Assembly (NCBI RefSeq): GCF_004010195.1
Contig: NC_057715.1
Coordinates: 114,078,257-114,142,256 of the forward strand
Reading direction: 5' to 3'
DNA from: Chiloscyllium plagiosum
Taxonomy: Eukaryota
Length of the DNA: 64,000 nucleotides
Below, piece after piece: positions 560-63,239 of the stretch. The notes beneath the pieces are model-generated. The model saw only the letters and a list, made by a program, of their open reading frames with translations, was not told where the DNA came from and ran no database searches. The position numbers and the translations under genes were made by a program. Position 1 is the stretch's first letter; each line of letters opens with the position of its first letter.

Positions 560-1080
560 ACAACAACTTGCATTTATAGAGCATTTTCAAAAGCATCCTA
601 AAGCACTTCACAGGAACAAAGTTGAACCATATACTAGGAAATATTAAGCCAAGTTGGTCAGAGATAAGTTTTAAGAAGCACTTTAAAATGCAAGACAGAG
701 CACTAGACAGGAAAATCTATAGGAGAAAGCGAGGACTGCAAATACTGGAGATCAGAGTTGGGAGTGTGGTGCTGGAAAAGCAAGGCCAGTCAGGCAGCAT
801 CAGAGGAGCAGGAGCATTGATGTTTAGGGCATAAGCCCTTCATCAGGGCTTAGGCCCTGGAGTATCTGAAGACATGGTGCTACACGATGATGCAATCAAA
901 TGTTTAACAAGGCACAACAGATGGAGCCCAGAGGTCTTGGAAGATCTGGGGCTGGGATGACAAGGTTATGAAGGGATTCCAAGGGAAGGATGCCAGTGTT
1001 AAAAATCACTGCGTCACTAGATGGGAGAGCACAATACATCTGTGTAACTGGGATTTGTTTTGAATATCAACAGCTGAGCT
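560..1080 (-). mobile_element. Old L2-like LINE 3' end fragment (interrupted at 724-848)
   Basis: Starts caacaacttgcatttatagagc, the reverse complement of the gctatataaatgcaag tail shared with the Deu-SINE copies in this window; highly diverged. Confidence 0.5.
724..848 (-). mobile_element. Short Penelope-type element, family A (hammerhead-bearing)
   Basis: Matches the copies at 38365-38570 and 62586-62679. Reverse complement begins cCTGATGAagggcttatgcccTAAAc (GAAA mutated). Confidence 0.75.
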
Positions 1081-11029: not shown

Positions 11030-11830
11030 CCTGACTGTTTAGTTTGAAGCCCCATCTCCAGCTCCAACTCTGGTTCTAGCATGATTAAGGTGGAGCCCCT
11101 CACATCAGACAGCTCCCTCTTTTCCCCAGTACGTGTGTCTATGACCCATGAATGCCATTCCCTATAGTATGGTGCAGCAGGCTTGAAGGGTCAACTGACC
11201 TACTCCTGTTATTGTTACTTATGGTCTTTTGGAACTCAAATCCATTTCTCCCACACCAATCTTTGAGCCACACATTTATGGCTTTAATCATATTGATCCT
11301 GTGCCTTGTGGCTCGGGTAATCTGGAGATCACCACCATTTTAGTTCTGCTTTTTAATTTAGCCCCCAGTTGCTCATATTCCCTCTGCAGGACCTTTTATT
11401 TCTTTCTACTCATATCATTGTTACCTATCTGAGCCATGATAACCAGATCTTTCCTCTCCCTTTTCAATTTCCTCTGCAGCCCAGATAAGATATCCTGAAG
11501 CCGAGCACCTGGCAGGTAACATTGCCTTCAGGACTCTCGATCTTGGCTGCTACTTAAAACAGTGCCTGCTACTTAAAAAAAACCCCGGAATAACTGCAGA
11601 TTCTGGAAATCAAAAATTGCTGGAAAAGCTCAGTTCTGAGGAAGGGTCACTGGACCTGAAATGTGAACTGATTTTTCTCCACAGATGCTGCCAGACATGC
11701 TGAGCTTTCCTAGCAATTTGTCTTTGTGTCTATTACCTTAACTCTACTGTCACCAATTACAATGTTTCTCTTTATTCCCTGACTTGAATGGCTCCCTGTA
11801 CCATGGTGCTATGGTCAGTTTGCTTATTTT
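11030..11830 (-). mobile_element. CR1 ORF1 (SGNH esterase-like) remnant
   Basis: Minus strand reads VIGDS...CYLPGARLQDILSGLQRKL...VIMAQIGNNDM, matching the CR1 ORF1 GDS / PGA / GTND blocks. Interrupted at 11576-11725. Confidence 0.7.
11576..11725 (+). mobile_element. Short fold-back Penelope-type element, family B
   Basis: Inverted arms (aattgctggaaaagctcag / ctgagctttcctagcaatt) and an internal cagttCTGAGGAagggtcactggacctGAAAtgtgaactg. Confidence 0.75.
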
Positions 11831-16490: not shown

Positions 16491-16817
16491 ATGTAGTCCT
16501 CCAAAATTGTTTCAGAGCTCTCATGGAGTACCAGTGCGCCAGTACAAGGAAATGCTTGATCTGTTTGACAGCTGCAATACAGTGGTAAATTGTGTGAATA
16601 AAGAATGAATTGATAATATCACTACAATTAGCAAATGTACTCTACTCACGCATACACAGATTGATGTTTTTAAACTAGACACTGAGGTCCATTTTCTTTA
16701 AATGAAGACATCTGATGATCAATTACACATTGAGGAAGGGCCAAAAAAAGCTGGAGCTTTAAAAAAATGAAAAGGTGAAACTAAAAGCTTCCAACAGCTG
16801 GAAGACAAAAAATTCAT

Positions 16818-17458
16818 CTTGGTAAAGGTTCATCTTGGAGTGCAGTTATTAGCGGTGTTCCGCAAGGATCTGTTTTGGGACCATTGCTGTTTTGGGACCA
16901 TTTTTATAAATGACCTGGAGGAGGGGCTAGAAGGTTGGGTGAGCAAGTTTGCGGATGATACGAAAGTCGGTGGAGTTGTTGACAGTGAGGAAGGATGTGT
17001 CAGGTTACAGCGGGATATAGATAAGCTGCAGAGCTGGTCAGAAAGGTGGCAAATGGAGTTCAATGTAGGTAAGTGTGAAGTGATTCACTTTGGTAAGAGT
17101 AACAAAAAGACGGGGTACTGGGCTAATGGTCGGATACTTGGTAGTGTGGATGAGCAGAGGGATCTTGGTGTCCATGTACACAGATCTCCGAAAGTTNNAT
17201 TACGAGGGGGCATTGCTTTAAATTAAGGGGTGGTAGGTATGGGACATATGTTAGGGGTAGATTCTTTACTCAGCGAGTCGTGAGTTCATGGAATGCCCTG
17301 CCAGTAGCAGTGGTGGACTCTCCCTCTTTATGGGCATTTAATCGGGCATTGGATAGGCATATGGAGGATAGTGGGCTAGTGTAGGTTAGGTGGGCTTGGA
17401 TCGGCGCAACATCGAGGGCCAAAGGGCCTGTACTGCGCTGTATTTTTCTATGTTCTAT
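16818..17458 (+). mobile_element. Young CR1 LINE (RT C-terminus plus 3' tail) spanning an assembly gap
   Basis: FINDLEEGLEGWVSKFADDTKVGG (FADD catalytic motif), KCEVIHFG; nn at 17197-17198; tail ttctatgttcta. Confidence 0.95.
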
Positions 17459-19625: not shown

Positions 19626-20627
19626 TACACTGCTTCTTGGAGTTGTAGGGCACAGGCTCAAACTCTCTGCACTGAATGATTTAACTTTTATTCAATTTCA
19701 AATGAATATTTCAGCACAAAACTACCATGCAACTTCGAGGATTCTTTTGGTAAGAAGGCACACATGCAGAAAGATGCAAGTAACAGAAGGAAAGCAGCAC
19801 CTTTCACGATCTCAGGATCTCCTGAACTTCTTTACAGCAACAAAAAGATGGGTGGATATTTTGGGTAACGAAAATAACAGCCATTTTGAGAGTTTCACAG
19901 TGTTATGTGGAAATTATGAGCATCCTGAAATGGGCAAGGGAACAAGTTATAGCTTGTTCACTGATTTTGAATATTATTCCAACATGGAAAGAAATTTAAG
20001 CCATCAGTCTTTTCTGGAATGAATGTAATAATAGTTATACAGTATGTTATTGCACTGAATTATTCTTTGGAATGCATTGACTATTGGGCAGCAATGGCTT
20101 CAATATCAATGTTGCTGCTCACATTGATTTCCTTGCAATGACTACTTAAACGTGGAGAGAATTAAGGGAGAATTTTGACTTTGTCAACCAGAAGAACTCC
20201 ATTCTCATTCAATTTCTGACAACCACCTGAACCGCTGAAATTAGCAGACTCAGTCTCAGGTTATCTCACCCAGGGTGAAACTTTCATGATGTACTCTTTC
20301 AGAATGGCACCTTCTTACTAGTTCAGGTTCTGCACACAACTCAGAACTTCCAACTTTTTGTCCAGAGAGGGTGAATGCACCGTTAAGAGACAAGCTGCCA
20401 TACAGAATATGAAATACAGATGGAATTTTGGAAGAAGAATCTCCACACATCATTTAACTTTTGACCCTCAAAACATTAGATACAACTTGATCTGAGCAAC
20501 ATGACTTTTATTTCACACACACTTTTAAATCTTCTTGAACGCTGAGAGTGAGCACCTAGATAGCGCATTTTACTTCAATGCTTTTGATATGGCCATGCAC
20601 AGTACCTTACCTGGAAGATTCATGACA

Positions 20628-20740
20628 TGGTGGTGCTATTGGACTGGGTTGGACAAAGTCAGAAGTCACATGGCACCAGATTATAGTTCAACAGATTTAT
20701 TTGAAATCACAAACTTTTGGAGCGCTGCTACTTCATCGGC
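20628..20740 (-). mobile_element. Short Penelope-type element, family C (single arm)
   Basis: ggactgggttggacaaagtcagaagtcac...aaatcacaaacttttggagcgctgctacttcatc matches the left arm of 62182-62399. Confidence 0.7.
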
Positions 20741-21830: not shown

Positions 21831-21879
21831 CACACATTACAACAGGTGCGAAATGAACTTGACAAGCAGATTGGAAAAG

Positions 21880-22032
21880 TTAGAAATCACACACCAGGTT
21901 ATAGTCCAACAGATTTACTTGGAAGCACTAGCTTTCAGAGTGCTGATGGTGGTAGAAATCTGTTGGACTATAACCTAGTGTTGTGTGATCTTTAACTTTG
22001 TACACCCCAGCCCAATACCGGCATCTCCAAAT
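21880..22032. mobile_element. Fold-back Penelope-type element, family C, with 13-bp TSD
   Basis: Arms aggttatagtccaacagattt / aaatctgttggactataacct. TSD cagattggaaaag at 21867-21879 and 22033-22045. Confidence 0.8.
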
Positions 22033-25000
22033 CAGATTGGAAAAGGTAGAGTACTGACACAATTTCAAAAAAACACTGAGCTACTCCACAACTTAGTTAC
22101 ATACTTTGCATTGAGATTAGCAAACAATATATCCAGTGCCCAGTCATATACCAATATTAATTCAAAGTTTAAAAATTATTCTTGTGTTACAAATATCAGC
22201 AATTAGTTATTTAATTACTTGAATAATAGGCCATAAGTATCCTATTTAAACAAAACACATGAAACGATTCAAAGCTGTAGTGAGATCTCCTTTTGTCCTT
22301 TGGGTGAACTTTTCTTCACTGTTTAAGTCCTCCCGAGGTAGAACTGCGAAAAGTTTGCTTTCAGATAAGAGTATAGAGAGGTGAGGTCATTTTGTAGCTG
22401 AGATCTTAGCTTTACATAAGGGGTTTGCAATGGGAACACAGGTCTCTGTTCATCAACATAAGCACCTCCAATGACAGTAATGAGACAGGAAACAAAAGCC
22501 TGTGAAAAATAATATTTCCACTGGACAACGATGATACAGTTCATTCAATACTATGGTTTTGTCTACATGAATACCAACAAGGCTTTCATTCTGCATTTGA
22601 AAAAAATCATAACTTGAAACCTCGGCGGATTATGATAGTATTTCACACTATTTCAAAGACTAGCTTAAGGTTTTCAAGATTTACTTTAGGGCTGGTGGGA
22701 AGGAAGTTGGAGTTTGGTGCTCAGTGGTAGGAGAGACTGGTTTCTTAAAAGGAATATACTGTTGTCGACACTATTTTAGATTTCTAAGTAGCACTTTGTT
22801 TCACAGAACCCTGTGTGCACTTAACTAGAAAAAGTACTGGGCAAGGTGAAAAAGACATTGAGCAGTAAACAGAGTACAATTTGCAGTGATCACATTCCCT
22901 CACAACAAACAGATGAGAAGTGAGCAATGGTTAGAAAAATCCTCCCACACAAGTAGAGGGGTGGAGTACTGGATGCCATTCAAAACAAGACAGAACAAAC
23001 AATTGTGTGGATTAAAGGCTTTATTCAGAACCAGGGCTTGAATACTGACATCTGTGGTATATAGAAAGCAATATGCATGCCACACTTGAACAAAGAATTT
23101 ACAATTAGATAACATACATTAAAAAAAAATACTATTTTTACACATCCATCCAAATTTGGTAAGGTCCAAATCTCAACAATGCTTTCTAAATCCAGGCTTT
23201 TAGAGCATCACCTACTCATCATTTTCAAGTTATTTCATTGCCTTTCATTCTTTTATTCTTGTCCACAGTAAAGAACAAAAGGAAAGTTGCAACAAGCTGA
23301 AAGTGCTTCCTCCACAGGCAGGAAGGAGAGAAAATGTTAAAACAGGTTACTCCAAGATTGAAGTAACACCAAGAATTGCTCTAAATAGTGATGAACTGAG
23401 GATTTCTCCTGTCTTTCCCCTCAGCTACGCCAGGGGTACAGTGGGGTAACTGAGGAAAGGAAGCTGAAGACTGCAAATATGGCTTAATATGCTGGATGCT
23501 GACAAGCAATTACTGAAGGATTGCAAATATGCTTTCATAGTTAGATCATTTAGGACTGAGGGGAGAATATATTTTTTCAGAGCTCTGTTGCAGTCTGGAA
23601 ATGTGAGCCTTTTTTCTCTGCAAAAAGCCACCATGAGCATCTTCAACATTTGCTGCTTTTTTTTTGGTAGATTATTATTATTATTTTGGTCTATTATTTG
23701 TAATAGTTTGCCGTTGGAATTCTCCTTAGTTCGCCGTTGGAATTCTCCTTAGTTCACCCCCAGAGGACGATGGATGCTCAGAATATAGGAAAGACCGAGA
23801 CCGATAGATTCTTAGGCATCGAGGGAATCGAGGTAAAGAGGGCAAAGCTATGGAGTCGATTATCACTTGTGGTGTGGTACAAATTTACTTCCCACTCATC
23901 GGTCTAAGCAGGTGCTGCATTTAGACATTGACTGCTTCAATATCTGAAGGGTCATGAATGGTGCTCAACATTGTGCAATCTTCAGCTAATATCTCCATTT
24001 GTGAGCTTATACTGGAGGGAAGATCATTAATGCAGCTGAAACGTTTGGGCCTGGGTCACCACACTGAATAAATCCTGAGATTATGCGCCAACTGAGATTA
24101 GAACAAAGAAGGAATAGGCCATTCTGTCTGTCGTACCAGCGCACCATTCAATTAGATCCGAGCTCATCATCAGCCTAAACGGCAGTTTCTCTCACTATAT
24201 TGCTCTATAGCCCGAGCGGTCATTACTCTTCAGAAATCTATCGAGTTTTGCATTGAATTTTCAAATATCAAGCTTCTCATAGTCTCATTCTCTATAATAT
24301 TCGACGTGAAATCATGCAGATTACCAAATGAATTCAGGACTTGAAAAGGTTGAAATGAGAGGGCTCGCATTTGTATATCTGCAATTCTTTGCCCCAAAAG
24401 GCTGTGGATGGTGGAACAATTGAAATTTTACACACTGCTTTCGATGTATTTTGATGGATGAAGGTACCAAAGATCAAAGGCAGATAAATAGAGGCAAGGT
24501 GCAGATTATCCATGATCTGCTTGAATGGGGCTCGAGCCTGTTCCTAGTTTGATAATGGTTAGTGAAAGTGACAGTGGAAAGACTGGTGCTGTCTAGTTTA
24601 CTAATTGGTACCCTGAAGGTAACTACTGAAAGTCAAATACACTTTGATCTCTGAAAACTGCTCGAGACAGCAAAATTTCCCTTATTGTGCAACATATAAG
24701 AAGTTATAGATTATAAAGTGCAATCTTGTATATTTTTGCAATTTTGTATTTCAGTGGTATTTACATCTTTTTGAAATAGCACATGTATGGATGGCAGGTA
24801 ACAGAGTAGTGGAACCAGAAACAAAATTAAAAAGAGGTAACTTGACCAGTTCAAGGAATGGGATTATAAGATGAACGTGGGAAGCAAAGTCTCGGTGGAG
24901 AACAAACAGTGAAAAAGAACACAAAACAGGCAGCCTTCAAAAAATGCTTTGAAGTTTCTTTAAAAAAATGTTTGACTACTACAAAGGACGTCTTTAAGGA

Positions 25001-29044: not shown

Positions 29045-29175
29045 TTACTGTTTCACTGCTGCTCACTGATGTTACCTAGCATGGTGACAAAACATCTGAG
29101 AACAAATCCAATAGCTCAGTGAGCAAACTTACAACCTGACCAACAACCTGAGCTACAAATCTTCTGCAACATCTC
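29045..29175 (+). mobile_element. Decayed Penelope terminal repeat (family D)
   Basis: cactgatgttacctagcatggtgacaaaacatctg...agctcagtgagcaaacttaca resembles 42745-42842. Confidence 0.7.
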
Positions 29176-29912: not shown

Positions 29913-30122
29913 AAAAACCAAAGAAACTGCAGATGCTGTAAATCAGAAATAGTCAGAAGTTGCTGGCAAAGCTCAGCAGGTCTGGCAGCATCTGTGAAGA
30001 AAAACCAAAGTTAATGTTTCAAGTGTGGTGATCCTTTAACCAGACTCAAAACATTAATTTTGATTTCTCTACACAGATGTTGCCTTACCTGCTGAGCTTT
30101 TCCAGCAAGATTTGAGTTTGTT
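29913..30122. mobile_element. Fold-back Penelope-type element, family B, with 13-bp TSD
   Basis: Arms ttgctggcaaagctcagcaggtctggcagcatctgtg / cacagatgttgccttacctgctgagctttttccagcaa. TSD tgaattatttctt (29900-29912) and tgagttatttctt (30123-30135). Confidence 0.8.
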
Positions 30123-30254
30123 TGAGTTATTTCTTGCTTATGTTGATAATTATTTAATTTTCTCCTCTGGCATCTGAATTAATGAGGATAGCAAGTACCT
30201 GGATCTGCAAAAAACAGCAATCTTTCAAGTTCAACCCTTGCTTTCTAGAGTCAG

Positions 30255-31160
30255 TTTTACAGCATGTAAAGAGGTCCTTCAGCCCATCTTTCCTGTGCTG
30301 ATCATTTCATACCTGTCTACTCTGACCCCATTTTTCAGTTTTTGGACTGTAGCCTTGTCTACTTAGCTTTCTAAATATTTATTTAAATATTTCTTAAATA
30401 TTCTAACAGTTCCTGATTCTTCCACCCATTCAGGGAGTGAGTTTCAGAATCCTATCCCCTCAAATCTCCTCTAAACCTCCAGGCCCTTATCTTAAATCTA
30501 TGCTCCTGGTTATTGATGCACCCATGAAGAGTACAAGTTCCTTCCTATTTATGTTCTTCATAATTCTGGACATCTCAAACATCTGTCCTACGGCTTTCAA
30601 GGATTTATGGACAAGCACAGTAATGAGCCTTGGATGTGCTGTACTCCTCAGGGTCCTATCATCCATTGTGCAATCCTTTGTCTGATTCATCATCTCAAAA
30701 TGCAGCACCTCTCCCTTTTCAGGATTAAACTCATCTGCCACTGTCCACTCAACTGAATACCCAGTCTATATTGTCCTGTAGACGAAGGCTTGCTGCCTCA
30801 CTATTTGTCATACTAATGTGTGCCATCTGTAAACTTTCTGATCAAAATCTCCTACATTTACACTTAGATCATTAACATACTCTACAAGCAGTGTACCAGC
30901 ACCAGGGCCTGCAGTATGCTATTGAATACAGCCTTCCAGTCACAATAACAAACTTCAACAGTACTTTCTGCCTCGTACCACTAAGACAATTTTAGGGTCC
31001 AATTTTCCAAATTGCCTTGGATCCCCTAGACTCTCACCTACTTGACCAGTCTCCTATTGAGACCTTAGAGTTCCACGTAGTCAACATCAACTACACAATC
31101 CTCATCAACATACTTAGTCATGACATTCAAAAATTCAGTCAAGCTTGACAGGATCACTCT
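30255..31160 (-). mobile_element. CR1 LINE RT to 3' end, internally deleted and decayed
   Basis: ORF 30487-30741 EFNPEKGEVLHF...VLVHKSLKA; reverse-complement RT region through 31150. Confidence 0.8.
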
Positions 31161-32739: not shown

Positions 32740-33460
32740 CAAGCTCAATGCATTCTAAGCTCGCTTTGAACACAAGGTCAGTGCAATGATACCACCCAAT
32801 CCAACCTGCACCTGTACGCAGCATCACTCTAAGACCTAGGACTTGGCCATACTCTAATTGGATCTTGACTTCCGTAATCATTAAGAATAGGCAACACCTC
32901 CTCCACCAAAATCCTCAACACTGGTGCCCTGCAAGGCTGCATACTCAGCCCTCTATTATATCCTTAAACACTCACAACCATGTGGTCAAATTCTGCCCAA
33001 CTCTATTTACAAGTTTGCTGACAAAACCACAGTTGTAGGTGGATCTCAAATAACGATGAGACAGAATATAGGAAAGAGATATAGTGCTAAGCAGCATGGT
33101 GTAACAATCTCTCCATAGATATCAGGAAAATGAAGCTGGTCATTAACTTCAGGGAGCAGACTGGAGGGCATGCCCCTGTCAGCATTAATGGTGCTGAAAT
33201 GGAGATGGTTCACACTGTCAAATTCCTGGAAGTGATGATCACCAACAATTTGTCCTGGACCATCCATAACAAAGCAACAGTCAAGAGAGCACAATTATGT
33301 CTCTATTTTCTCAGTAAACTAAGGAAATTTGGCAAGTCCACAAGCACTCTTATTAATTAGAAAGCATCCTTTCTGGAGGCATCACAATATGGTATGGCAA
33401 TTTTCTTCCCGAGGCCGCAACAAATTACAGAGCCATGAACCCAGCCCAGTCAGCATGCAA
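32740..33460 (+). mobile_element. Rex1/Babar LINE RT fragment
   Basis: LNTGALQGCILSPL, NSIYKFADKTTVVG and KRAQLCLYFLSKLRKFG motifs. Confidence 0.85.
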
Positions 33461-33839
33461 ATCGACATTTCAGGCAAAAACCCTTCATCAGGACAGACAT
33501 CTACCCGGTTCCAATGCTAAGCTTTAGAAAGCACTAAGGAAACCACACAATGTTTGGAAGAAAAAGCTTGCCCAAAGCCAAACTCTTTGGTTCTGCATCA
33601 CAGCTTTTCGTTTTCTCCCTTTATTCTTTAATGGGACGTGGGCACTTCTGGTAGGTGTTTTTCTTAAAGCTCCAAAATTGCTGAAAAATTTCAGCAGGTC
33701 TGACAGATTCTGTATGGGCCCATTGATCATTCTTCAGAGCTAATTTTTGTTTTAAATCAAGGTGTTCAAAGATGTTACCATACATTCTGGAGCTGGTGGG
33801 ACGTGAACCTGGGCCTCCAGGCCCGCTGTGGTACAAGAG

Positions 33840-34200: not shown

Positions 34201-34256
34201 TTAAAACCATGGTTTACTTTGCAAGTGCAAGCTCTGAGCAGCAAGCGTAAACATTA

Positions 34257-34350
34257 TTCCTGATGAAATGCTTATGCCCAAAATGTTGATTCTCCTGCTC
34301 CTCGACTGCTGCCTGATCGGCTGCGCTTTTCCAGCGCACACTCTGACTTG
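34257..34350 (+). mobile_element. Short Penelope-type element, family A
   Basis: ttcCTGATGAaatgcttatgcccAAAAtgttgattctcctgctcctc...ttttccagcgcacactctgac. Confidence 0.75.
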
Positions 34351-36850: not shown

Positions 36851-38364
36851 CATGGCTGACACGTACAATGCATTTTTTTTTGAAGTTTTGAATTTATAGC
36901 CTTTTTTTCTTTCAGAAGCAAGACCTGGTATTTCCATTAGTGCATATCTAGATTTATTATCAACATTTCCTTCTAAACCTCAATATGTACATCCATTTGA
37001 ATCCTAGTGAGTGGAATCCTAGCGAGTGGGCTTCCTGCATCTTTAATCTATTCTTGATATATACATATTTATTTCTGTAAAAACGGTCTTGTCTTGTATA
37101 GCTTAACTAGTAATTAGCATCTTGACAATGTAAAGACTGTCAACACTCAAAACAGTTTAAGCACAGGTTGAAAATGCAGTTCTTAGTAAATATTCAGTGG
37201 TCCTTGCTCCTGGCCATTCCCCTAAATGTACCTTTTCCCCATCAATCAAACCTGCCACAAATAGATGACCAGTTAACCCTGGCATTCTGGAGTTCCCTTC
37301 CTACACTCATTTTCCTCTTCTCATTTGTGACCCCCCTTACAGCCCTCCTCTTTGACCAAGCTTTTGGTCACCACCTAATGTTTCTTCCTGTAACCTTATT
37401 GATTTTTGGATCCATTTCTTTAATGAGTCTACCTATTATTAGACTTCCCAAGAGCCCAAGTATGGAATGTCAACTCAAACTCAAAGGCATCGTCAGTCAC
37501 CAACTGTAACTGCCATCATTATCCTATTCAAGTCATCCCAGGAACTCTGAGTAAACTTTCTCTAAAACCCTTCTATCATCATTTCCCCAGTTTTGCCTGT
37601 CCTTAGGAGAGCAAATCTGGATTGCAAATACAGTCTCACCAGTGCTGTATAAAATTGTAGCAAAGCTTCCTTATCATTTTATTTCATTCTCTTTCCTATC
37701 AATGAACAAAGTTCCAGAAATCAAATAAATGTTTGTCTGGAGCTTGTGCACAATTGGTTACTGAGCTTCCCTACATTACAATACTGGCTTCAATTCAAAA
37801 CAACTTTATTCAAGTTAGTGTTTTGGGATGTTTGTGAGGTGCTGTAGAAATGCAAATATTTCTCTCTCTTTTTGGGTTCAGATAAAAGCAATGCTCAAGG
37901 TTTGTGCCACATTGAATGTAAATAAGGAAAATGGTTTACAAGTAACATTAGATAAAACAGAAAGATACTTAAAAGCAACTTATTTTTGGATGAAATGGAT
38001 AGCACCATTTTCACGTGTATTTTTGACATTTAATTATAATTCTCAATGAAACAACACTTGGTTCATTTTGTTTTAATTTAACTTGGAGGGAGAAGGGAAG
38101 CAGGAGAGATACAGGTATGAACTGTGTAAATAATTGCTTGTGGTAGAAAGTTCTGTGTTTCTTTAAATTCTGTGACATTTAAAGAAAACCAAGATAAATA
38201 ACGGCAGACAGATCAACAATAAAATTAATAACACCTTTTTAATCAGGTCTAGACTGTGCCATTTGGGAAATTAATACCAAACTTGAAATGTATACAATAC
38301 TATCATATTAGATGCAACATTCAGGTGGGTGTTTTCAACTATAACAGCAATATGAAGTGCAGGC

Positions 38365-38570
38365 AAAAGTGAGGACTGCTGGAAATCGAAGTTTAGATTA
38401 GAGTGATGCTGGAAAAGCACAGCCAGTCAGGCAGCATCCGAGGAGCAGGAAAATCGACGTTTTGGGCAAAAGCCCTTCATCACGACCCACTCCTGATGAA
38501 GGGTTTTTGCCCGAAATGTCGATTTTCCTGCTCCTCGAATGCTGCCTGACTGGCTGTGCTTTTCCAGCAC
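38365..38570. mobile_element. Fold-back Penelope-type element, family A, with 15-bp TSD
   Basis: Arms 38406-38482 and 38494-38570 are reverse complements around an 11-nt loop. TSD caatatgaagtgcag at 38348-38362 and 38571-38585. Confidence 0.9.
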
Positions 38571-41549
38571 CAATATGAAGTGCAGCTTTATTTTAGAAAT
38601 AAATGATAATTGCCGTACATGAAGGTACTAGGTGCCTAAGGAGGTTTCATCAACATTAAATATATGTCAGTGAATGGAAATGGCCTACGTGGAGAACTTT
38701 ATTCCCATTTCTATCCATTTATGACTAAAAATGTAACAGTAGAACTGCTAGGCCAAAACAAACTTGCTCTTCAAGGGTGCCTGCATTTCTTCAGATGAAT
38801 ATCGGAATATAGTTGTGAAACAGGATGAATGTTTGAGTTGTTGCACTGGCATGTTTCACTTGGCCATAGGAGAAGGGACATTTACTGCTCTTCACAGGTG
38901 TTTATTTCAATCGATATTAAAACATATTGAAAAGAAAGAGAACAGAAAAAGCAACATGTCATTGCAGACCTTTCATCAATGCATTCTCCCATCTCATCCG
39001 TTTTGAGAGCTGTGTGGATTGTGGGTGTGAAGAGACGAGAAATAAAATATATTTTGAGATCATCAAAACTTCAATGTTGGAATCAGACACGTTGTGGAAA
39101 TATCTGGCAAACTCAACATAGTTAAATCATGATTTGGAGATTCGGTATTGGACTGGGGTGTACAAAGTTAAAAATCAACATCAGGAGCTACTTCAGTGTA
39201 ACATCCCACTACCTGCATTGTAAACGCAACCCATTGCAAATGAAAGTTTAAAAAATTCTCTGGTGCTCCTTCGCATTCGGAATCCAGGACATATGAAAGT
39301 AATATGCTACATTCTGCAACAGACAAAAATGAACAATGACATTTTACAAACATTTTTAAAGCAGCCATAGCTGAAGCAGAGAAATGTCAACATGGACTGA
39401 CACTGCTAGAAAGGGACAAGCTATCGTAATTTCTCTTACACTTCTGATCAAAGTTTTTTTAATTCCAAGTATGGCACTTGCAAGCACGAACAGTAGCAGA
39501 GACACACTTAAGGGGAAGCTAGATAAATACATAATGGAGAAAGGCACGGAAGGTTAAGCCAGTAGCATTAGACAAAAGAGGGCTGGAGAAGGTTCAAGTG
39601 TAGAATAAACACCATCACAAAACAAGTGAGCCAAAAGACCTGTTTCAGTATCGTAAATTCTATGTAAAAGGTATAGGGACAATGCATTGTGTCACACAAA
39701 TTCTCAGATTGATTATAATGCACCAAATGTGCACAATAATCTTTCACAAAGCTACATCTCTCATCCCTCCTGCAGTTAATAATATAGCAGTCTCCCAATG
39801 CTAAACAAAAACAAAGTATTCATTTTCATAACTAACACTAGGATGAAAGCAATATTCAAATATTTTGGAACCACTTAAAAGATGACTGCTCCACTGCGTT
39901 ATGGGATAAGAATTCCATTATTGACCAGAGAGATTATGGTGGAATGTCGCCACATGTGAACTTGGTCTAATTAGTCATCAGATTTCCTTCCAGGCCAGAA
40001 AATAACTCGTACCTCACTCGTGCAAAATGCACAGGAAATCTCCTGTTTGAGTCATGTATGGGGTGCTAAATGGCCTCACAGCTGCACCTCACTGCAATAT
40101 ATTGCTTACTTTAAATTAACGCTTTTTTCCAGTGATCAGAAAACTTGAACACAGGAGTAGGTGTAAATCCAAAGGTCCAACAATTCCCTTCTGTTCATAC
40201 GTACTAAATTTGTTTTCAGTGCTTCACATTCTTTGTGCTTCTGTAACTGTTTCACAGGACAGAGATTAAAAAAAATCCCAAGTAAAAGAGGTGAAATATG
40301 AAGGAAAAATACTATGCAACAAGAGCTCCTGTAGTGAAAGGAATAGATAAGCAAACTATTACTTCAATGGCTAGTTGGGAAAGAAAGGAAGCAGTGAAAG
40401 TTTGAAATAATACGACAGGTTGATAATAGAGTAAAACAGTTTGCAACTATCCTGATGCTAATACATAATCAATGTTGAAGCCTGATGATATTTTATATGA
40501 TTTTTTAAAAATGCACAATTTTAATACTCCAAAATCTTTTCAGAAAATGGAAATTGCTAAGTCTTTATGTAACAGGTGAACTTTTAAATTACAATTTGCT
40601 CTGTAGACAATGTTCCTGGGAGTATAACAGTGGATTGGCAAGGGGGAAAATACATCTGTATTTATAGCACGTCGAGATTTTATTGTCAGTCATACACACA
40701 AACAGATGCTTATGTTGGTTGCAATGTGCAGAAGCGTGATTGATGTATAATCACTCTCAGGCAAGCATGAGCAATTCATCAACAAATTGATATACTCAAC
40801 AAATATTTGCCAGCATATATTCAGCTGTGCATATTCATCTCTCAAAATAATCCCAAGAGGATACAGAGGATCACTTTTATCTATCAAAGTGGTGAAATCT
40901 TTCACATAATGTAATTAAACATTAATTTTATTTAATTTCTACAAGAAAATCAAGATCCATAATGACTGCTGCGATATACAATGTCACCTGGTGCAGTTCT
41001 CAGCATAAAAGGTTTAGAAAGTGCCAGATTCAATCCTCACTCTATGCAGAATTTTCTGATGGGCATTAAGTCAGCCTTTCTGGGGAAAGCTTTTGAAGTT
41101 CCTCATGAAGGTACAGAGAGGACGCGAGAAACAATCTTTGGTGTTGTTGAGGATTTTAAGACTTGGGGAGAGTTCAAACTCAAATTGGAGGTTTGCGATA
41201 GTTAGGAAACCTTTCTAACTCTATTTTGTGTGCAGAAGTCTGGAAGTCTCTTCATGCAACCATGTGAATTATGAACAAGTGTAGGTCCTCGGCACTTACT
41301 CCACAATTCAGTAAGAATACGGCTGATCGGATTACTCCACATTCTCACCTACCCAATGCTAACCTCTTGCCCCTGTGCTCATCAAGAATCCATCAACCTC
41401 TGCCTCAAAAAACAGAAGGACTCTGCTTTCACACCTTTTGAGGAAGTGTGTTCTAAAGGCACTCTGCCTCAAAAGAAACCACTCCTACCCCCTTATTTTC
41501 AAAACAGTTACTCCTGAATTCTAAATTATCCCACCAGAGGATATATACT

Positions 41550-42841
41550 GCAAGGCTTGTAGCTCAGGTTGAGGTTTAGGGTGTAGGTTTGCTCGCTGAG
41601 CTGTAGCTTTGATATCCAGACGTTTCATTACCTGGCTAGGTATCATCAGTGGCAACCTCCAAGTGAAGCAAAGCTGTTGTCTCCTGCTTTCTATTTAAAT
41701 GTTTGTCCTGGATGGGGCTCCTGGGGTTGGTAGTTATGTAATTTCCTGTTCGTTTTCTGAGGGGTTGATAGATGGTATCTAGATCGGTTTGTTTATGGCG
41801 TAGTGGTTGGAGTGCCAGGCCTCTAGGAATTCTCTGGCATGTCTTTGCTTAGCCTGTCCTAGGACAGATGTGTTGTCCTAGTCGAAATGGCAGTTTTTTC
41901 CTCCGTGTATAGGGCTACGAGGGAGAGAGGGTCGTGTCTTTTTGTGGCTAGCTGGTGTTCATGTATCCTGGTGGCTAACTTTCTTCCTGTTTGTCCTCCG
42001 TAGTGTTTGTGGCAGTCCTTGCATGGAATTTTGTAGACGACGTTGGTGTTGTCCATGGGTTGTACTGGGTCTTTTAAGTTTGTTAGTTTTTGTTTGAGAG
42101 TGTTGGTGGGTTTGTGTGCTACTAGGATTCTGAGGGGTCTTAGTAGTCTGGCTGTCATTTCTGAAGCTTCTTTGATGTATGGTAAGGTGGTTAGGGTTTC
42201 TGGCTGTGTTTGGTCTGCTTATCGTGGTTTGTTCTTGAGGAATCTGCGGACTGTATTTTTTGAGTATCCGTTCTTCTTGAATACATTGTATAGGTGGTTC
42301 TCCTCTGTTTTCCGAAACAAAAACTAACAAACTTAAAAGACCCAGTACAACCCATGGATAAAACCAATGTCGTCTACAAAATTCCACGCAAGGACTGCCA
42401 CAAACACTACGTAGGACAAACCGGAAGAAAGTTAGCCACCAGGATACGCGAACACCAGCTAGCCACAAAAAGACACCACCCTCTTCTCCCTCGTAGCCCT
42501 ACACACGGAGGCAAAAAAACCACCATTTCGACTGGGACAACACATTTATCCTGGGACAGGCTAAGCAAATACATGCCAGAGAATTCCTAGAGGCCTGGCA
42601 CTCTAACCACAATGCCATAAACAAACACATAGATCTAGATGCCATCTATCAACTCCTCAGAAAATGAACAGGAAATGACATCACCACAAACCCCAGGAAC
42701 CCCATCCAGGACAAACATATAAATAGAAAGCAGGAGACAACAGCTTCGCTTAACTAGGAGGTGGCCACTGATGATGTTTGAGCCAGGCAATGAAACGTCT
42801 GGATATCAAACCTACAGCTCAGCGAGCAAACCTACACCCTA
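41550..42841. mobile_element. Penelope-like retroelement (GIY-YIG endonuclease 3' part) as an inverted repeat, 12-bp TSD
   Basis: Both arms encode NVVYKIP(C/R)KDCHKHY(V/G)GQTGRKLATRI.EH (Penelope/Poseidon GIY-YIG). Arms at about 41575-42095 (minus) and 42315-42842 (plus). TSD aggatatatact at 41538-41549 and 42842-42853. Confidence 0.93.
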
Positions 42842-43639
42842 AGGATATATACTTTTGCAAACACCCTATCAAGACCCTCAAGATCTTACGTGCTTCAACC
42901 AATTGTGGTTTTACTTTTCTAAATTTCAAGGTATATAAAGTCTACTGTACCCTGTCTCTTCTCGCAAGGAACACCCCCCACCCCCATCATTCCACACAGT
43001 CTCTTTGCTAGATCTTTGCCCACTAGTTTAACTTATCTATACTCCCTTGTAGTCTCCATTGCCTCTTCACAGTTACTTTCACAACTTTGTGTTATGAACA
43101 AATTTAGCAACGATACCTTTACTTCCTACACCCAAATAGTTTATATAAATTGTATAAAGTTGAGGAGACAGCACAGGTCCTTGTGGCACATCCCTCTTAA
43201 CATCTTGCCAAACAGAAAATTATACTGCCAATAATCTTCGCTAACATAGTTAGGATATGGTAGCACATCAGTGAGGTTATATAGCTAATTGCCTCAAACC
43301 CTGGGCTACTGAATCAGAAAGGAGTGCTCAAATAACACTAAATCAAATAAATCAATAACAGCAACTGGGTGATTTAAATTTAATTAAATATAGAAGAAAT
43401 TCAAAAGCTAGTATTAATAGTGGTGGGAATAAAACAACTGGTTCAATAATGTCCGATAGAAAATTAAACTCTTTGGTGCTTACACAGGACTTCAAACTCT
43501 CAGCAATCTCCATGACTCAGTCACCCACTGAAATGGCCAACCAAGTTACTCAGTTATATCATACGCCATATGACAGACTGCAACACTCAATAGCAATCAG
43601 CAATAAATAGAGCAAAGAGAGTGGATAGCTGAGTAAACT

Positions 43640-59520: not shown

Positions 59521-60834
59521 TCTCTGATCTGGACATAGTGGTAGTATCCCTATCTCTAAGCCACAAGCTCCCACCTCAGTTCAGGTCCCAACTCATGTGA
59601 TGGTCACAAAACAGACGCCATAATATTAAACAAGTTCAGCAACATTCAGTAAACCCTCCAATACAACTCTGGCCAGTGGTAAGAACAGGAGTTACCTGAT
59701 CAGTTGGAATCATGTGGCACTTGTACCACAATCTTCCCACATTTTAAGTGTTCATGTATAGGTCCTGACCATAAGCAATCTTGACCTTGATTCTGAGTCA
59801 AAATCTACCCTAGTATGCTACTCTACTTATTTGTTTCCAAAGGGGAAACTTTGATGGAGTAAAAGCACAAATGATAATGGACATGGAGGCAGTATACTTT
59901 GTAGAAATTGTAGATTCCATGACAGACATCAGAGGTATATTCCTGTTCCTCGGATGTTGCCTGACCTGCTGTGCTTTTCCAGCACCACTCTAATTAGAGG
60001 TATATAGCCTGGTGTTAGCCATGACAGTTATCTGGTTGAGTAAATTTGGAAAATAAGGATTTGCTTCTCAATCCCAAGTTCCCAGAGCCCTTTTTGCACA
60101 AAACTTTTGCAATCACTCCATGCAGGTTTAAACTTTGAACAAGGCATTCCATCCGTGAGAGAGTCTAACAAACATTTCAAGTACTACTTGAAACCAACGT
60201 CATTGGTGGAAAATACTTCAACTTTATAAAGAAAAGCAATTTTACCAAGATGAAATAGAACCAGCTTATTGAAGAATAAACTGATTAGCAGAAATGAATT
60301 CTCTGGCTTTGAGAAGAAAGAGAGAAAATGTTCAATAGTGGGAAGAAAATCTATTTTCACATTTCACAATACTGTAACTGTCATTTCAAACTTCATCCAA
60401 CATTACAGCATGTGGTAGAATCTGCCACCAAAAAACACCTTTATGCACAGGACGGATATCTGGGAGTCATTAGTTGTCAAACAATTGACGGCAAGGTCAA
60501 GCAGTTTATAACCACCTTAACCTAAAGATCAGGTTGCAACCTTGAGGTCACTCCCTAGTATGGACTATTTACAATTATTAATGTGCATGGCTTTAATATT
60601 CTGTTTTAAATTATTTCTGCTTTTCTACTGCCTGTTACCCTTGATATGAGAATTCTTGCACATTCATAATGAGCTACTTTGGCTACATTTTTCAATAAGG
60701 GCAGTGTGAAAGTATTTATCTGGAAAGATAATGCCTCTTGCAAAGATTAGATCATTTTAGACCCATTGATAATGCTAAGATAGATTGACACATCCACTAA
60801 GGTAACACAAGAGAAAACAACTTGGCTCTTAATT

Positions 60835-61100: not shown

Positions 61101-62181
61101 TATATAAACGCAACTCTTCACCAAAAATCCAATTTGTGTATTTAACTGAAAGAGACTGAATTTAATTGGGGAAGTGTTAATGTTTCAGATACTGGAAGGT
61201 GAATAACAATTTCCTGACATTTTCCCAACCAAGTCAAAATTCAGTTGCTAACATTAAAACGAAAAGACTGACCTTAAATCAAATTATTTATGCTTGGTGC
61301 AGCAACTTGCTTCTTAACACTACACAATTTTATAACTCTGTAAAATAAATGACTGTGTTGTGAATTTGGCCACACGTGCCAAACATGTATAATATTAGGC
61401 ATCTTGCTTTTGGGTCTATAAAAACATTTATCTTCAATACAAAAGTCTAATAAAATCTTTTATAATCCAGAGCACAATATTAACTGGCATCAGCTGTTCT
61501 CAATCTTGTAGGAAACATGTGTTTTGCATCCTCATTGCTGACTTGGGCTGATCTCATAAATATGGCAGCAATATGCAGAATACACGACCCTGTTGGTTTC
61601 TAAAACAAAGTAGCTTTCTTTTCCAGCGATCAGTTTTTACAGGTGTACACCTATCTTGAGCCCAACACAGGAGTATAAAGACATGAGGAAGGAATTATGA
61701 TAAAAATAACAGAGACCTAAGATTGATCACAATGAGTTTTGATCCATGCGGAATCAGGGATAGATATTTGTATGTTTACAAGCTGTAGTCTAAGAGGCCC
61801 ACGTAAGTTGAATAATGGATGCCACAAAGTGTTGTGCAGTAAGCTCATTGAGAAGTTCACATGATTTGTATATAGAATTTTGAGTAAATAGCTGTGATTA
61901 ATTTAAGGAAGAAAAAAGCACCATGAGCAAAAAGCCATTTGGTCCGTCAATTTTATTTCTATTACTACCTGTTTATCATTTATAATATCCTAGACTCTAA
62001 TGAACACATTTAATACTCTGATCAAAAGTTCTGCAAGACTGAGAAAGGCAGTCAAACTAAACTCCAGGACAGTCAGTACACCAAGGTAAATGCTGCAAAA
62101 GCTAGAAGTTGGAAATAAAAAATGGAAAATACTAGAAATGCAGACTTTGCCGAGAGATATTTTAACATTCAGAGACGATGT

Positions 62182-62399
62182 GGAGATGCTGGTGTTGGAC
62201 TGGGTTGGACCAAGTCAGACGTCACACAGCATCACATTGTAGTCAAACAGGTTTATTTGAAATCACAAGCTTTCGTAGCGCTGCTCCCTTGTCAGGTGAA
62301 GAGATGCCAGGTCATCTGATGAAGGAGCAGCACTCCTAAAGTTTGCGATTTCAAATAAACCTGGTGGACAATAACCTGGTGTCATATGACTTCTGACTT
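62182..62399. mobile_element. Fold-back Penelope-type element, family C
   Basis: Arms at about 62212-62299 and 62312-62399. Imperfect TSD ttcagagacgatg / ttcaggaacgatg. Central CTGATGAaggagcagcactcc. Confidence 0.85.
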
Positions 62400-62580
62400 C
62401 AGGAACGATGAAAGAGCACAGACAATGTCAGGCTTGTCCAGAATCTGCAAGTTTCACAGCAAAGGCAGGGAATGCAAGAAAGAAAACTGCTCATCTTAAA
62501 TTAATTCTTCTTCAAGGACAGACTAAGTCAATTCCTAAGTCTTACAGAACTTTTGATCAGAGTATTAAATGTATTCATTA

Positions 62581-62618
62581 GAGTCCTGATGAAGGGCTTT
62601 TGCCCGAAACGTCGATTT
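62581..62618 (+). ncRNA. Minimal type I hammerhead ribozyme motif (intact core)
   Basis: GAGUC-CUGAUGA-A-GGGC(UUUU)GCCC-GAAA-CG-UC/GAUUU: core boxes intact, 4-bp stem II, palindromic ACGU in place of stem III, 5-bp stem I with two G-U pairs. Predicted cut after C62613. Activity untested. Confidence 0.65.
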
Positions 62619-62679
62619 TACTGCTCCTCGGATGCTGCCTGAACTGCTGTGCTTTTCCAGCACCACTCTAATCCAGAAA
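62586..62679 (+). mobile_element. Short Penelope-type element, family A, young
   Basis: CpG-intact copy of the family A sequence, bracketed with extra 5' DNA by taagtcaatt repeats. Confidence 0.85.
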
Positions 62680-63239
62680 TAAGTCAATTTTCATTGCGCA
62701 GCTTCACAAAATAGAAAAGTCTCAAGCTCTTTAATGCAGGCAGTCATTTAGACATTATCAAATATTTTGCCAAAGAAAAGGATTATTCTCAGAACAGGAC
62801 GAGTTCATTTCCATTGACATTTCTACCACGAGGCTGTGGACCTTTGGTCTCCTGCTTCTGCTGTTCTGCAACGGCTGCAGCAGCGACAATGGCCACTACC
62901 TGCCTTTGAAGATTGCACTCTAGAGTCAGTTTCATCTTCCGACAGTGCCTGAAGCCTCTAACTGGGGACCAAGCAGACCTCCTTAAAAAATTGCACTTCT
63001 AAAGTATCTTTAACTTAGAAAAAATATCAGATGCAATTAGACAGAGTTGGAGGAAATATTGAGGGAGATGGCCAAATATTTGTGAAGTGGAGTCTTGTAA
63101 CAAGGCAGAGGTATATAGACATGGAATTCTAGAATGCAAGATCTAAGCAACTTAAGGCAAAACTATTCAAAGGGTTTAACGGAAGAAATAAAAAGGAATA
63201 TCAAAAAGCTATATACAGGGGAAGGGATGGGGAGGTTTA

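Follow-up and report, generated by a model that had tools for sequence, protein, structure and literature searches.

Minimal type I hammerheads were described in the terminal repeats (pLTRs) of metazoan Penelope-like elements (PLEs) by Cervera and de la Peña in 2014 (PMC4209133), where fish elements of the Xena, Poseidon and Neptune groups are reported to bear them, and where a single minimal motif is described as giving no cleavage and dimers as giving low cleavage. The hammerhead of the anole Poseidon element cleaves only in the presence of protein, and its cleavage is dispensable for insertion (Frangieh et al. 2024, PMC11167929). The class of motif found here in the shark Chiloscyllium plagiosum is, in all the sequence features that were tested, this minimal hammerhead of metazoan PLE pLTRs; such motifs have been known at Penelope ends since 2014 and the class is ordinary. 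The features shared with the motifs of PMC4209133, as set out there, are the missing helix III, a palindrome at 15.2-16.2, a single base separating 9 from 10.1, a G10.1-C11.1 pair and a short helix I; in both cases one genome harbors several families, whose copies are mostly single and truncated, with some opposite-strand pairs. Helix II has 4 bp in the shark family A as opposed to 7-8 bp in Schistosoma (PMC4209133). No cartilaginous fish is named in that paper outside its supplements, and among the papers listed by our literature searches none described shark or chondrichthyan PLE hammerheads; the supplements of PMC4209133 and of bioRxiv 10.64898/2026.07.22.740005 may list shark elements.

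Copy anatomy likewise agrees with that given for endonuclease-bearing PLEs in PMC8557442 (Craig et al. 2021) and PMC3846280. As described in PMC8557442, these elements share with the shark families an RT followed by a C-terminal GIY-YIG, heavy 5' truncation, partial tandems, an inverted 5' copy and a tail of 30-40 bp at one end. With Anolis Poseidon (PMC11167929) the shark copies appear to share two neighboring internal priming sites that define the tail and AT-rich targets; uncleaved RNA is the main template in the anole, and probably here as well, whereas the clustering of 5' ends at the edge of the hammerhead reported below is absent from the main text on the anole element. Animal non-LTR retrozymes (PMC7229834; bioRxiv 10.64898/2026.07.22.740005), as portrayed in these accounts, have in common with the shark repeats their type I hammerheads, a link to PLE pLTRs and scattered monomers. 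They differ in being tandem arrays with mostly canonical hammerheads and circular RNA, while the shark copies in the window are solo or inverted and carry minimal motifs.

Hammerhead motifs in the window

Positions are those of the window, the whole 64,000-nt stretch of DNA that was analyzed. A first-pass annotation had described one minimal hammerhead architecture in four short-repeat families (A to D), quoting motifs at 62586, 11636, 62264-62299 (minus strand), 62316, 42768 and 41616-41653 (minus strand). Letters and coordinates of all these motifs were verified in the sequence, and the proposed tie between minimal type I hammerheads and Penelope machinery was borne out by the core consensus and by linkage to PLE coding sequence. 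The count of at least a dozen copies in 64 kb also holds, with about 25 terminal pieces in the window, 16 of them inspected across the hammerhead. A strict descriptor (helix I of at least 2 bp, CUGANGA, 1 base, helix II with G-C or G-U as its first pair, GAAA, 2 bases, UH) gave three window matches (33491, 38493 and 62586), all in family A, and none in 40 dinucleotide shuffles; the CG of the palindrome is kept at 62586 only.

The family A hammerhead at 62586..62613 (plus strand) comprises CUGAUGA, an extra A, a 4-bp helix II, GAAA and an ACGU palindrome, with a predicted cut after GUC (62613). As the annotation had stated, its core is intact, and it is the sole fully intact copy within the window. 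It lies in a 5'-truncated family A pLTR, a Neptune-type PLE end lacking the 35-nt tail (62584..62678, plus strand), flanked by a 10-bp AT-rich target-site duplication (left, 62524..62533 on the plus strand; right, 62680-62689). The "gagtc" strand of helix I (62581-62585) had been taken for family A sequence; the family has ATTC, and the strand instead belongs to a segment at 62532..62585 (minus strand) that matches host DNA at 61993-62046 in inverted orientation with 93% identity and was inserted with the element. This host-derived filler gives 62586 a 7-bp helix I, which is long because 62532-62585 is an inverted host-DNA copy and is therefore an accident of that insertion. The source of the 54-bp copy lies ~490 bp upstream and the copy was inserted inside the target duplication together with the element; a contig of run X15 crosses its junction without differences.

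The remaining family A pieces are more decayed or shorter. An inverted pair at 38361..38572, flanked by a 15-bp duplication (38348-38362 and 38571-38585), has a tailed minus arm and a plus arm whose core letters are intact with CG changed to UG in the palindrome, and the same state is seen in a short fragment at 33452..33493 (minus strand). Decayed ends are found at 712..846 (minus strand, tailed) and 34256..34344 (plus strand). Family B is represented by a pLTR end at 11607..11725 (plus strand), which is preceded by a short inverted piece and bears the hammerhead at 11636, and by a decayed inverted pair at 29916..30123. Hammerhead cleavage triplets follow the NUH rule. The architecture described at 11636 is present, but its cut triplet is GUG, with a G at position 17 where 93% of the family B copies of a random genome sample have U, so that this hammerhead is predicted from its sequence to be uncleavable.

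Family C forms a head-to-head inverted pair at 62177..62397, between duplications of 13 bp with 2 mismatches (62168-62180 and 62398-62410), in which the minus arm is tailed (to +122) and the plus arm tailless (to +83). Both cores are broken, by G8 to A in the minus copy and G12 to T in the plus copy; the family C motif quoted earlier agrees with the family majority but had been merged from these two copies. A decayed tailed family C end (20608..20737, minus strand) and a decayed inverted pair (21876..22034) also occur. The family D inverted pair at 41552..42853 is made up of Poseidon-type PLE ends that are truncated at the 5' side and contain GIY-YIG codons with frameshifts; it has a tail only on the minus arm and a 12-bp duplication at 41538-41549 and 42842-42853. 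Its hammerheads, at 41649 (minus strand) and 42768 (plus strand), were found where the annotation had placed them, although stem II is damaged in both. A decayed short family D-type end lies at 29067..29164 (plus strand).

In the proposed check against Rfam hammerhead models, no hammerhead family was matched at E up to 10, and hairpin-type Rfam matches on the inverted pairs were rejected as chance matches, not hammerheads. The inverted PLE pairs at 21877-21999, 29972-30096 and 38452-38526 gave spurious microRNA-precursor matches in Rfam; hairpins of such pairs, if transcribed, would be a possible source of double-stranded RNA. A locally repeated unit of ~35 bp at 1506-2102 contains CTGAGGA and GAAA words and has no hammerhead fold.

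Family consensus, stem pairing and abundance

Family consensuses were obtained from a random sample of 80 stretches of 10 kb, placed at round coordinates on the 19 largest contigs and totaling 779,210 non-N bases. The CUGANGA/GAAA conservation expected of the families was found, the core letters CUGANGA...GAAA...UH being the commonest everywhere in A, B, C and D, and fully intact cores were present in 49/76, 4/15, 21/42 and 6/9 ungapped random copies of A, B, C and D, respectively. The extra base after CUGANGA described in the annotation is A in families A, B and C and U in D (93-100% of the random genome copies), and the first helix II pair is G-C or G-U in 71/76 A, 11/15 B, 37/42 C and 9/9 D copies. 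The 4-nt palindrome also reappears as the commonest letters of the sampled copies, as ACGU in A, B and D and AGCU in C, with a narrow majority in family B (C in 67% and G in 53% of 15 copies). Departures from the family letters concentrate at CpG sites, as expected from neutral decay after insertion.

Stems I and II differ in sequence between families and keep their pairing, as had been noted. By comparison of aligned copies, stem covariation appears convincing between families and thin within them: pairs II.2 and II.4 of family A scored above every one of 500 shuffles, resting on 3 and 2 double changes with related copies uncorrected, and helix I pair 3 of family D is G-C, U-A, C-G or U-G in 9/9 copies, while most stem pairs give no within-family signal. 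The description of the four families as unrelated has to be amended for A and B, whose post-hammerhead blocks align with a score of 46 that none of 500 shuffles reached; the scores of the other five pairs were not significant (33-467 of 500 shuffles).

A looser descriptor (helix II of at least 3 bp) gave 60 matches in the 779,210 non-N bases as opposed to none in 10 shuffles. The palindromic helix III remnant is retained in 47 of these 60, the departures being mostly of CpG type, and raising helix I to 3 or 4 bp leaves 32 and 7 matches, respectively. The richness of the genome in CR1-like and Penelope-like repeats agrees with the description of the whale shark genome (bioRxiv 10.1101/443036). 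Scaled to 3.56 Gb, the sample gives about 2.7 x 10^5, 1.5 x 10^5 or 3 x 10^4 intact-looking motifs genome-wide with helix I of 2, 3 or 4 bp. The counts given in PMC4209133 are ~4,000 for coelacanth and ~9,000 for Xenopus, as against 0.3-2.7 x 10^5 extrapolated here with a different descriptor; for axolotl, up to 120,000 are given in PMC7229834. Family A includes young subfamilies with a median pairwise identity of 0.95-0.99 over 76 nt; the corresponding value of the 62586 variant is 0.87. Together with the very large number of copies, this 95-99% identity makes the role of PLE hammerheads testable from insertion ends, which is where the value of these repeats as a data set lies.

Coding sequence linked to the four families

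The annotation had regarded the repeats as non-coding elements. This part of it is overturned, each family being the terminal repeat of a protein-coding PLE whose longer copies carry RT/GIY-YIG. With a probability of roughly 0.9, we read the repeats as 5'-truncated pLTRs of four protein-coding PLE families, each bearing a minimal hammerhead, the scattered copies of which were likely inserted by the elements' own RT-endonuclease and are likely inert; most copies are probably dead-on-arrival truncations and not self-propagating non-autonomous elements.

Family D pieces of the window translate, with frameshifts, to a GIY-YIG endonuclease (Pfam E 0.003, below the cut-off), and longer genome copies add an RT (RVT_1, E 3e-12). 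For family A, three decayed full-length copies (L221, L222 and L232) have hammerheads 3.1-3.8 kb apart around an RT, a CX4CxxC linker and a GIY-YIG, although the Pfam matches are weak (RVT_1, E 2e-4 to 1e-2; GIY-YIG, E 0.014). The sequence behind the family A tail, reached via a tandem copy, reads as an ORF start, and in 21/30 loci found with this ORF-start query it is preceded by a family A hammerhead at a distance of 250-285 nt. Among the 30 best-scoring loci per query, which are not a random draw, the hammerhead follows the endonuclease query by ~500 nt in 19/30 loci for family B and by 650-720 nt in 18/30 for family C. Copies of B and C extended at the 5' side enter endonuclease codons, with RT codons further upstream; no Pfam match was found for the protein pieces of these two families, and their putative assignment to PLEs draws on blastp, on linkage and on visual reading of motifs. 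In blastp comparisons the endonucleases of A and B share 52% identity (E 1e-17), and the RTs of A and D 24% (E 2e-11) and of C and D 28% (E 6e-7), while the PLE protein pieces of all four families have no match to a CR1-like RT. A PDB sequence search returned low-complexity matches only.

A CX2-5CxxC linker precedes the endonuclease in A (L225, L353), B (L226) and C (L229) and is absent in D (L231), so that by the linker motif rule given in PMC8557442, as distinct from an RT tree, A, B and C would be Neptune-type and D Poseidon-type; the choice of Neptune over Nematis is based on the vertebrate-type host and the linker motif. Of the loci examined, several young ones of which are interrupted by assembly gaps, none had an intact full-length ORF; the longest stop-free stretch is 600 codons (L325), and long open frames flagged as ORFs in genome loci were not upheld in the 4 examined. 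In one young lineage of family A, the second GIY-YIG motif is covered by a 22-codon unit repeated in tandem and in frame, with three units in L265 (minus strand), L352-L355 and L357 and two in L356; a source copy with the repeated endonuclease motif was amplified in this lineage. The position of the ORF relative to the hammerhead also varies, since the ORF starts in helix II in Anolis Poseidon (PMC11167929) and ~167 nt after the core in family A, whereas the family D frame reads through the hammerhead core, which is thereby read as codons, and stops inside helix II (window 42768-42790; L034, L035, L044 and L047).

Insertion ends and copy anatomy

The random sample contains 144 A, 52 B, 64 C and 11 D terminal pieces, of which 169 span the core. 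Their 3' ends fall into two classes, with or without a tail of about 35-45 nt, and inverted pairs mostly combine one short and one tailed arm (30/33 in A, 18/18 in C). Target duplications of at least 8 bp flank 18/73 solo short copies (A 10/37, B 5/29, C 3/7), as compared with at most 2 per family in mismatched controls. For the 5' ends, subfamily UTRs were corrected for by copy-to-copy comparison and pieces close to gaps or to the limits of a stretch (9 A, 2 C) were dropped; BLAST ends are fuzzy, the arms of one pair are not independent and the family B UTR pool comprises 4 copies.

Among copies reaching the bin, 5' ends fall within 12 nt of the first core base in 69/106 (A), 27/33 (B), 28/51 (C) and 3/11 (D), as compared with 17-20% of family A copies stopping in each neighboring 25-nt bin. 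The pile-up is strongest in inverted pairs (A 43/48, C 23/27); in solo copies it is present in A (26/58, p 1e-5) and B (20/25) and was not seen in C (5/24, p 0.43). The ends are ragged and do not mark one position.

These ends bear directly on whether the 5' end of inserted copies is fixed by hammerhead cleavage of the template RNA. Precursor RNA processing was proposed in PMC4209133, and one family A fragment of the window (59939..59994, plus strand), which has no hammerhead core, starts adjoining the predicted cut; yet a role of this kind for the cut is largely refuted by the end distribution and can be given hardly any credence, as only 9/249 ends lie within 3 nt of the predicted cut (A 7/135, B 1/52, C 1/62), compared with 29 A, 18 B and 19 C ends at -6 to 0 of the core start, and the whole uncut hammerhead is present in most copies. 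Moreover, anole hammerhead mutants leave insertion unchanged (PMC11167929), and no read pile-up at the predicted cut was seen in run X20, a polyA library poorly suited to the question. In this sample the cut site is not what sets the 5' end of insertions; the 5' edge of the hammerhead does.

At that edge, pyrimidine-CA motifs resembling initiators are seen by eye in A and B, and initiator-like motifs in pLTRs are noted in PMC3846280. A cap-derived G was not seen at 5' junctions (G in A 1/14, B 3/15, C 1/4). The idea that this edge is a splice acceptor, as it is in Drosophila Penelope, was considered and set aside, fitting B by eye and not A or C.

The same copies allow a second view of the repeats to be weighed, in which they would be non-coding retroelements in their own right (SINE-like or retrozyme-like) whose transcripts self-cleave and depend on Penelope proteins for copying in trans. 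Short copies do far outnumber long ones (98/135 family A copies have 5' ends downstream of -13), non-LTR retrozymes are reported in one chondrichthyan in the text of bioRxiv 10.64898/2026.07.22.740005, and pLTR-flanked cargo moved in trans in a rotifer is described in PMC3846280. Internally deleted same-strand tandems also exist in family A, joining the ORF start to the 3' UTR (L301 with a 334-nt period, L060 with 266 nt, L072 and L074 with about 370 nt and three units). However, the extension of the longer copies of every family into PLE coding sequence and the raggedness of the 5' ends argue against independent elements, as do the deletion junctions, which differ among the units read, as expected of one-off template jumps. 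The window holds no same-strand tandem, and no head-to-tail units with a hammerhead of the retrozyme type were found in it. Seven same-strand A pairs within 600 nt occur among all loci examined, and those read carry ORF remnants; in 7/7 of these natural pairs a forced dimer fold lies 14-25 kcal/mol above the best fold. We accordingly hold independent non-coding elements to be improbable and retain truncated ends of protein-coding PLEs as the preferred reading. The rare 270-570 nt tandems of family A nevertheless resemble non-LTR retrozymes. L301, which came from the random sample, has two intact cores and is a candidate retrozyme-like dimer; some short tandem A units retain two hammerheads together with the ORF start, and mobilization in trans is conceivable for them.

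A mechanism for truncated PLE ends of this form can be outlined tentatively. The PLE protein would nick AT-rich DNA and priming would occur at either of two internal sites of the pLTR RNA, as shown for anole Poseidon. Copying would then run back through the uncleaved hammerhead, most often stopping at or near its 5' edge, probably because many template RNAs begin at hammerhead helix I. Priming at the 5' pLTR would thus run off after 85-130 nt, and priming at the 3' pLTR would give longer truncated copies. Short copies would end at the priming site, probably lacking the downstream protein-binding region, which would block further movement, and the hammerhead would likely be kept in source elements, where cleavage would need either a dimer or the help of protein. 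A more specific version, to which we give rather less than an even chance, is that the enzyme acts as a dimer and that both strands of the target are primed from the two internal start sites, using two pLTR RNAs with their 5' end (or a hard stop) at helix I. This would yield hammerhead-only stubs of 85-130 nt in very large numbers and one-tailed head-to-head pairs, and would have made this genome one of the richest in minimal hammerheads (on the order of 10^5 intact-looking), with template jumps making short tandem dimers, the raw material of retrozymes. Priming by a dimeric enzyme, if true, would be a step of the Penelope cycle for which no description was found in the literature.

Predicted ribozyme activity and RNA reads

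The hammerhead at 62586 has neither a helix III nor a tandem partner, and inverted pairs would fold back on themselves. As the sole window copy with a full core, helix II and palindrome, and with a 7-bp helix I supplied by the filler, 62586 invites the idea of co-option as an active ribozyme in a host transcript. Such intactness is common, 34/76 ungapped random A copies being equally intact. The structural features just given count against co-option as well, and so do the predicted fold, which mispairs the core and in longer context loses helix I, and run X20 (a polyA single-cell library, 2% read), in which no RNA reads were found on the unique flanks of 62586. Co-option is consequently judged extremely improbable, and 62586 is better seen as another truncated PLE end. 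No RNA record was listed for 62.4-63.0 kb, and run X21 gave no aligned reads. Reads of run X20 come from other copies in both directions, 94-99% of them running into unlike sequence, and fall to near zero just upstream of the hammerhead, which mirrors copy structure.

Host context of the window

A search for host exons, in which 97 of 140 stop-free stretches of at least 72 codons were scanned against Pfam, established no host gene or exon, so that the intronic setting named in the annotation stays putative. A 92-codon stop-free stretch at 30490-30765 (minus strand) showed a weak match to DUF6606 (E 9e-5, below the cut-off) and is possibly a host exon or a chance match. Pfam matches to ALKBH8_N and RVT_1 were obtained at 33091-33357 and 16771-17223; ALKBH8_N is linked to LINEs, and both stretches resemble LINE remnants.
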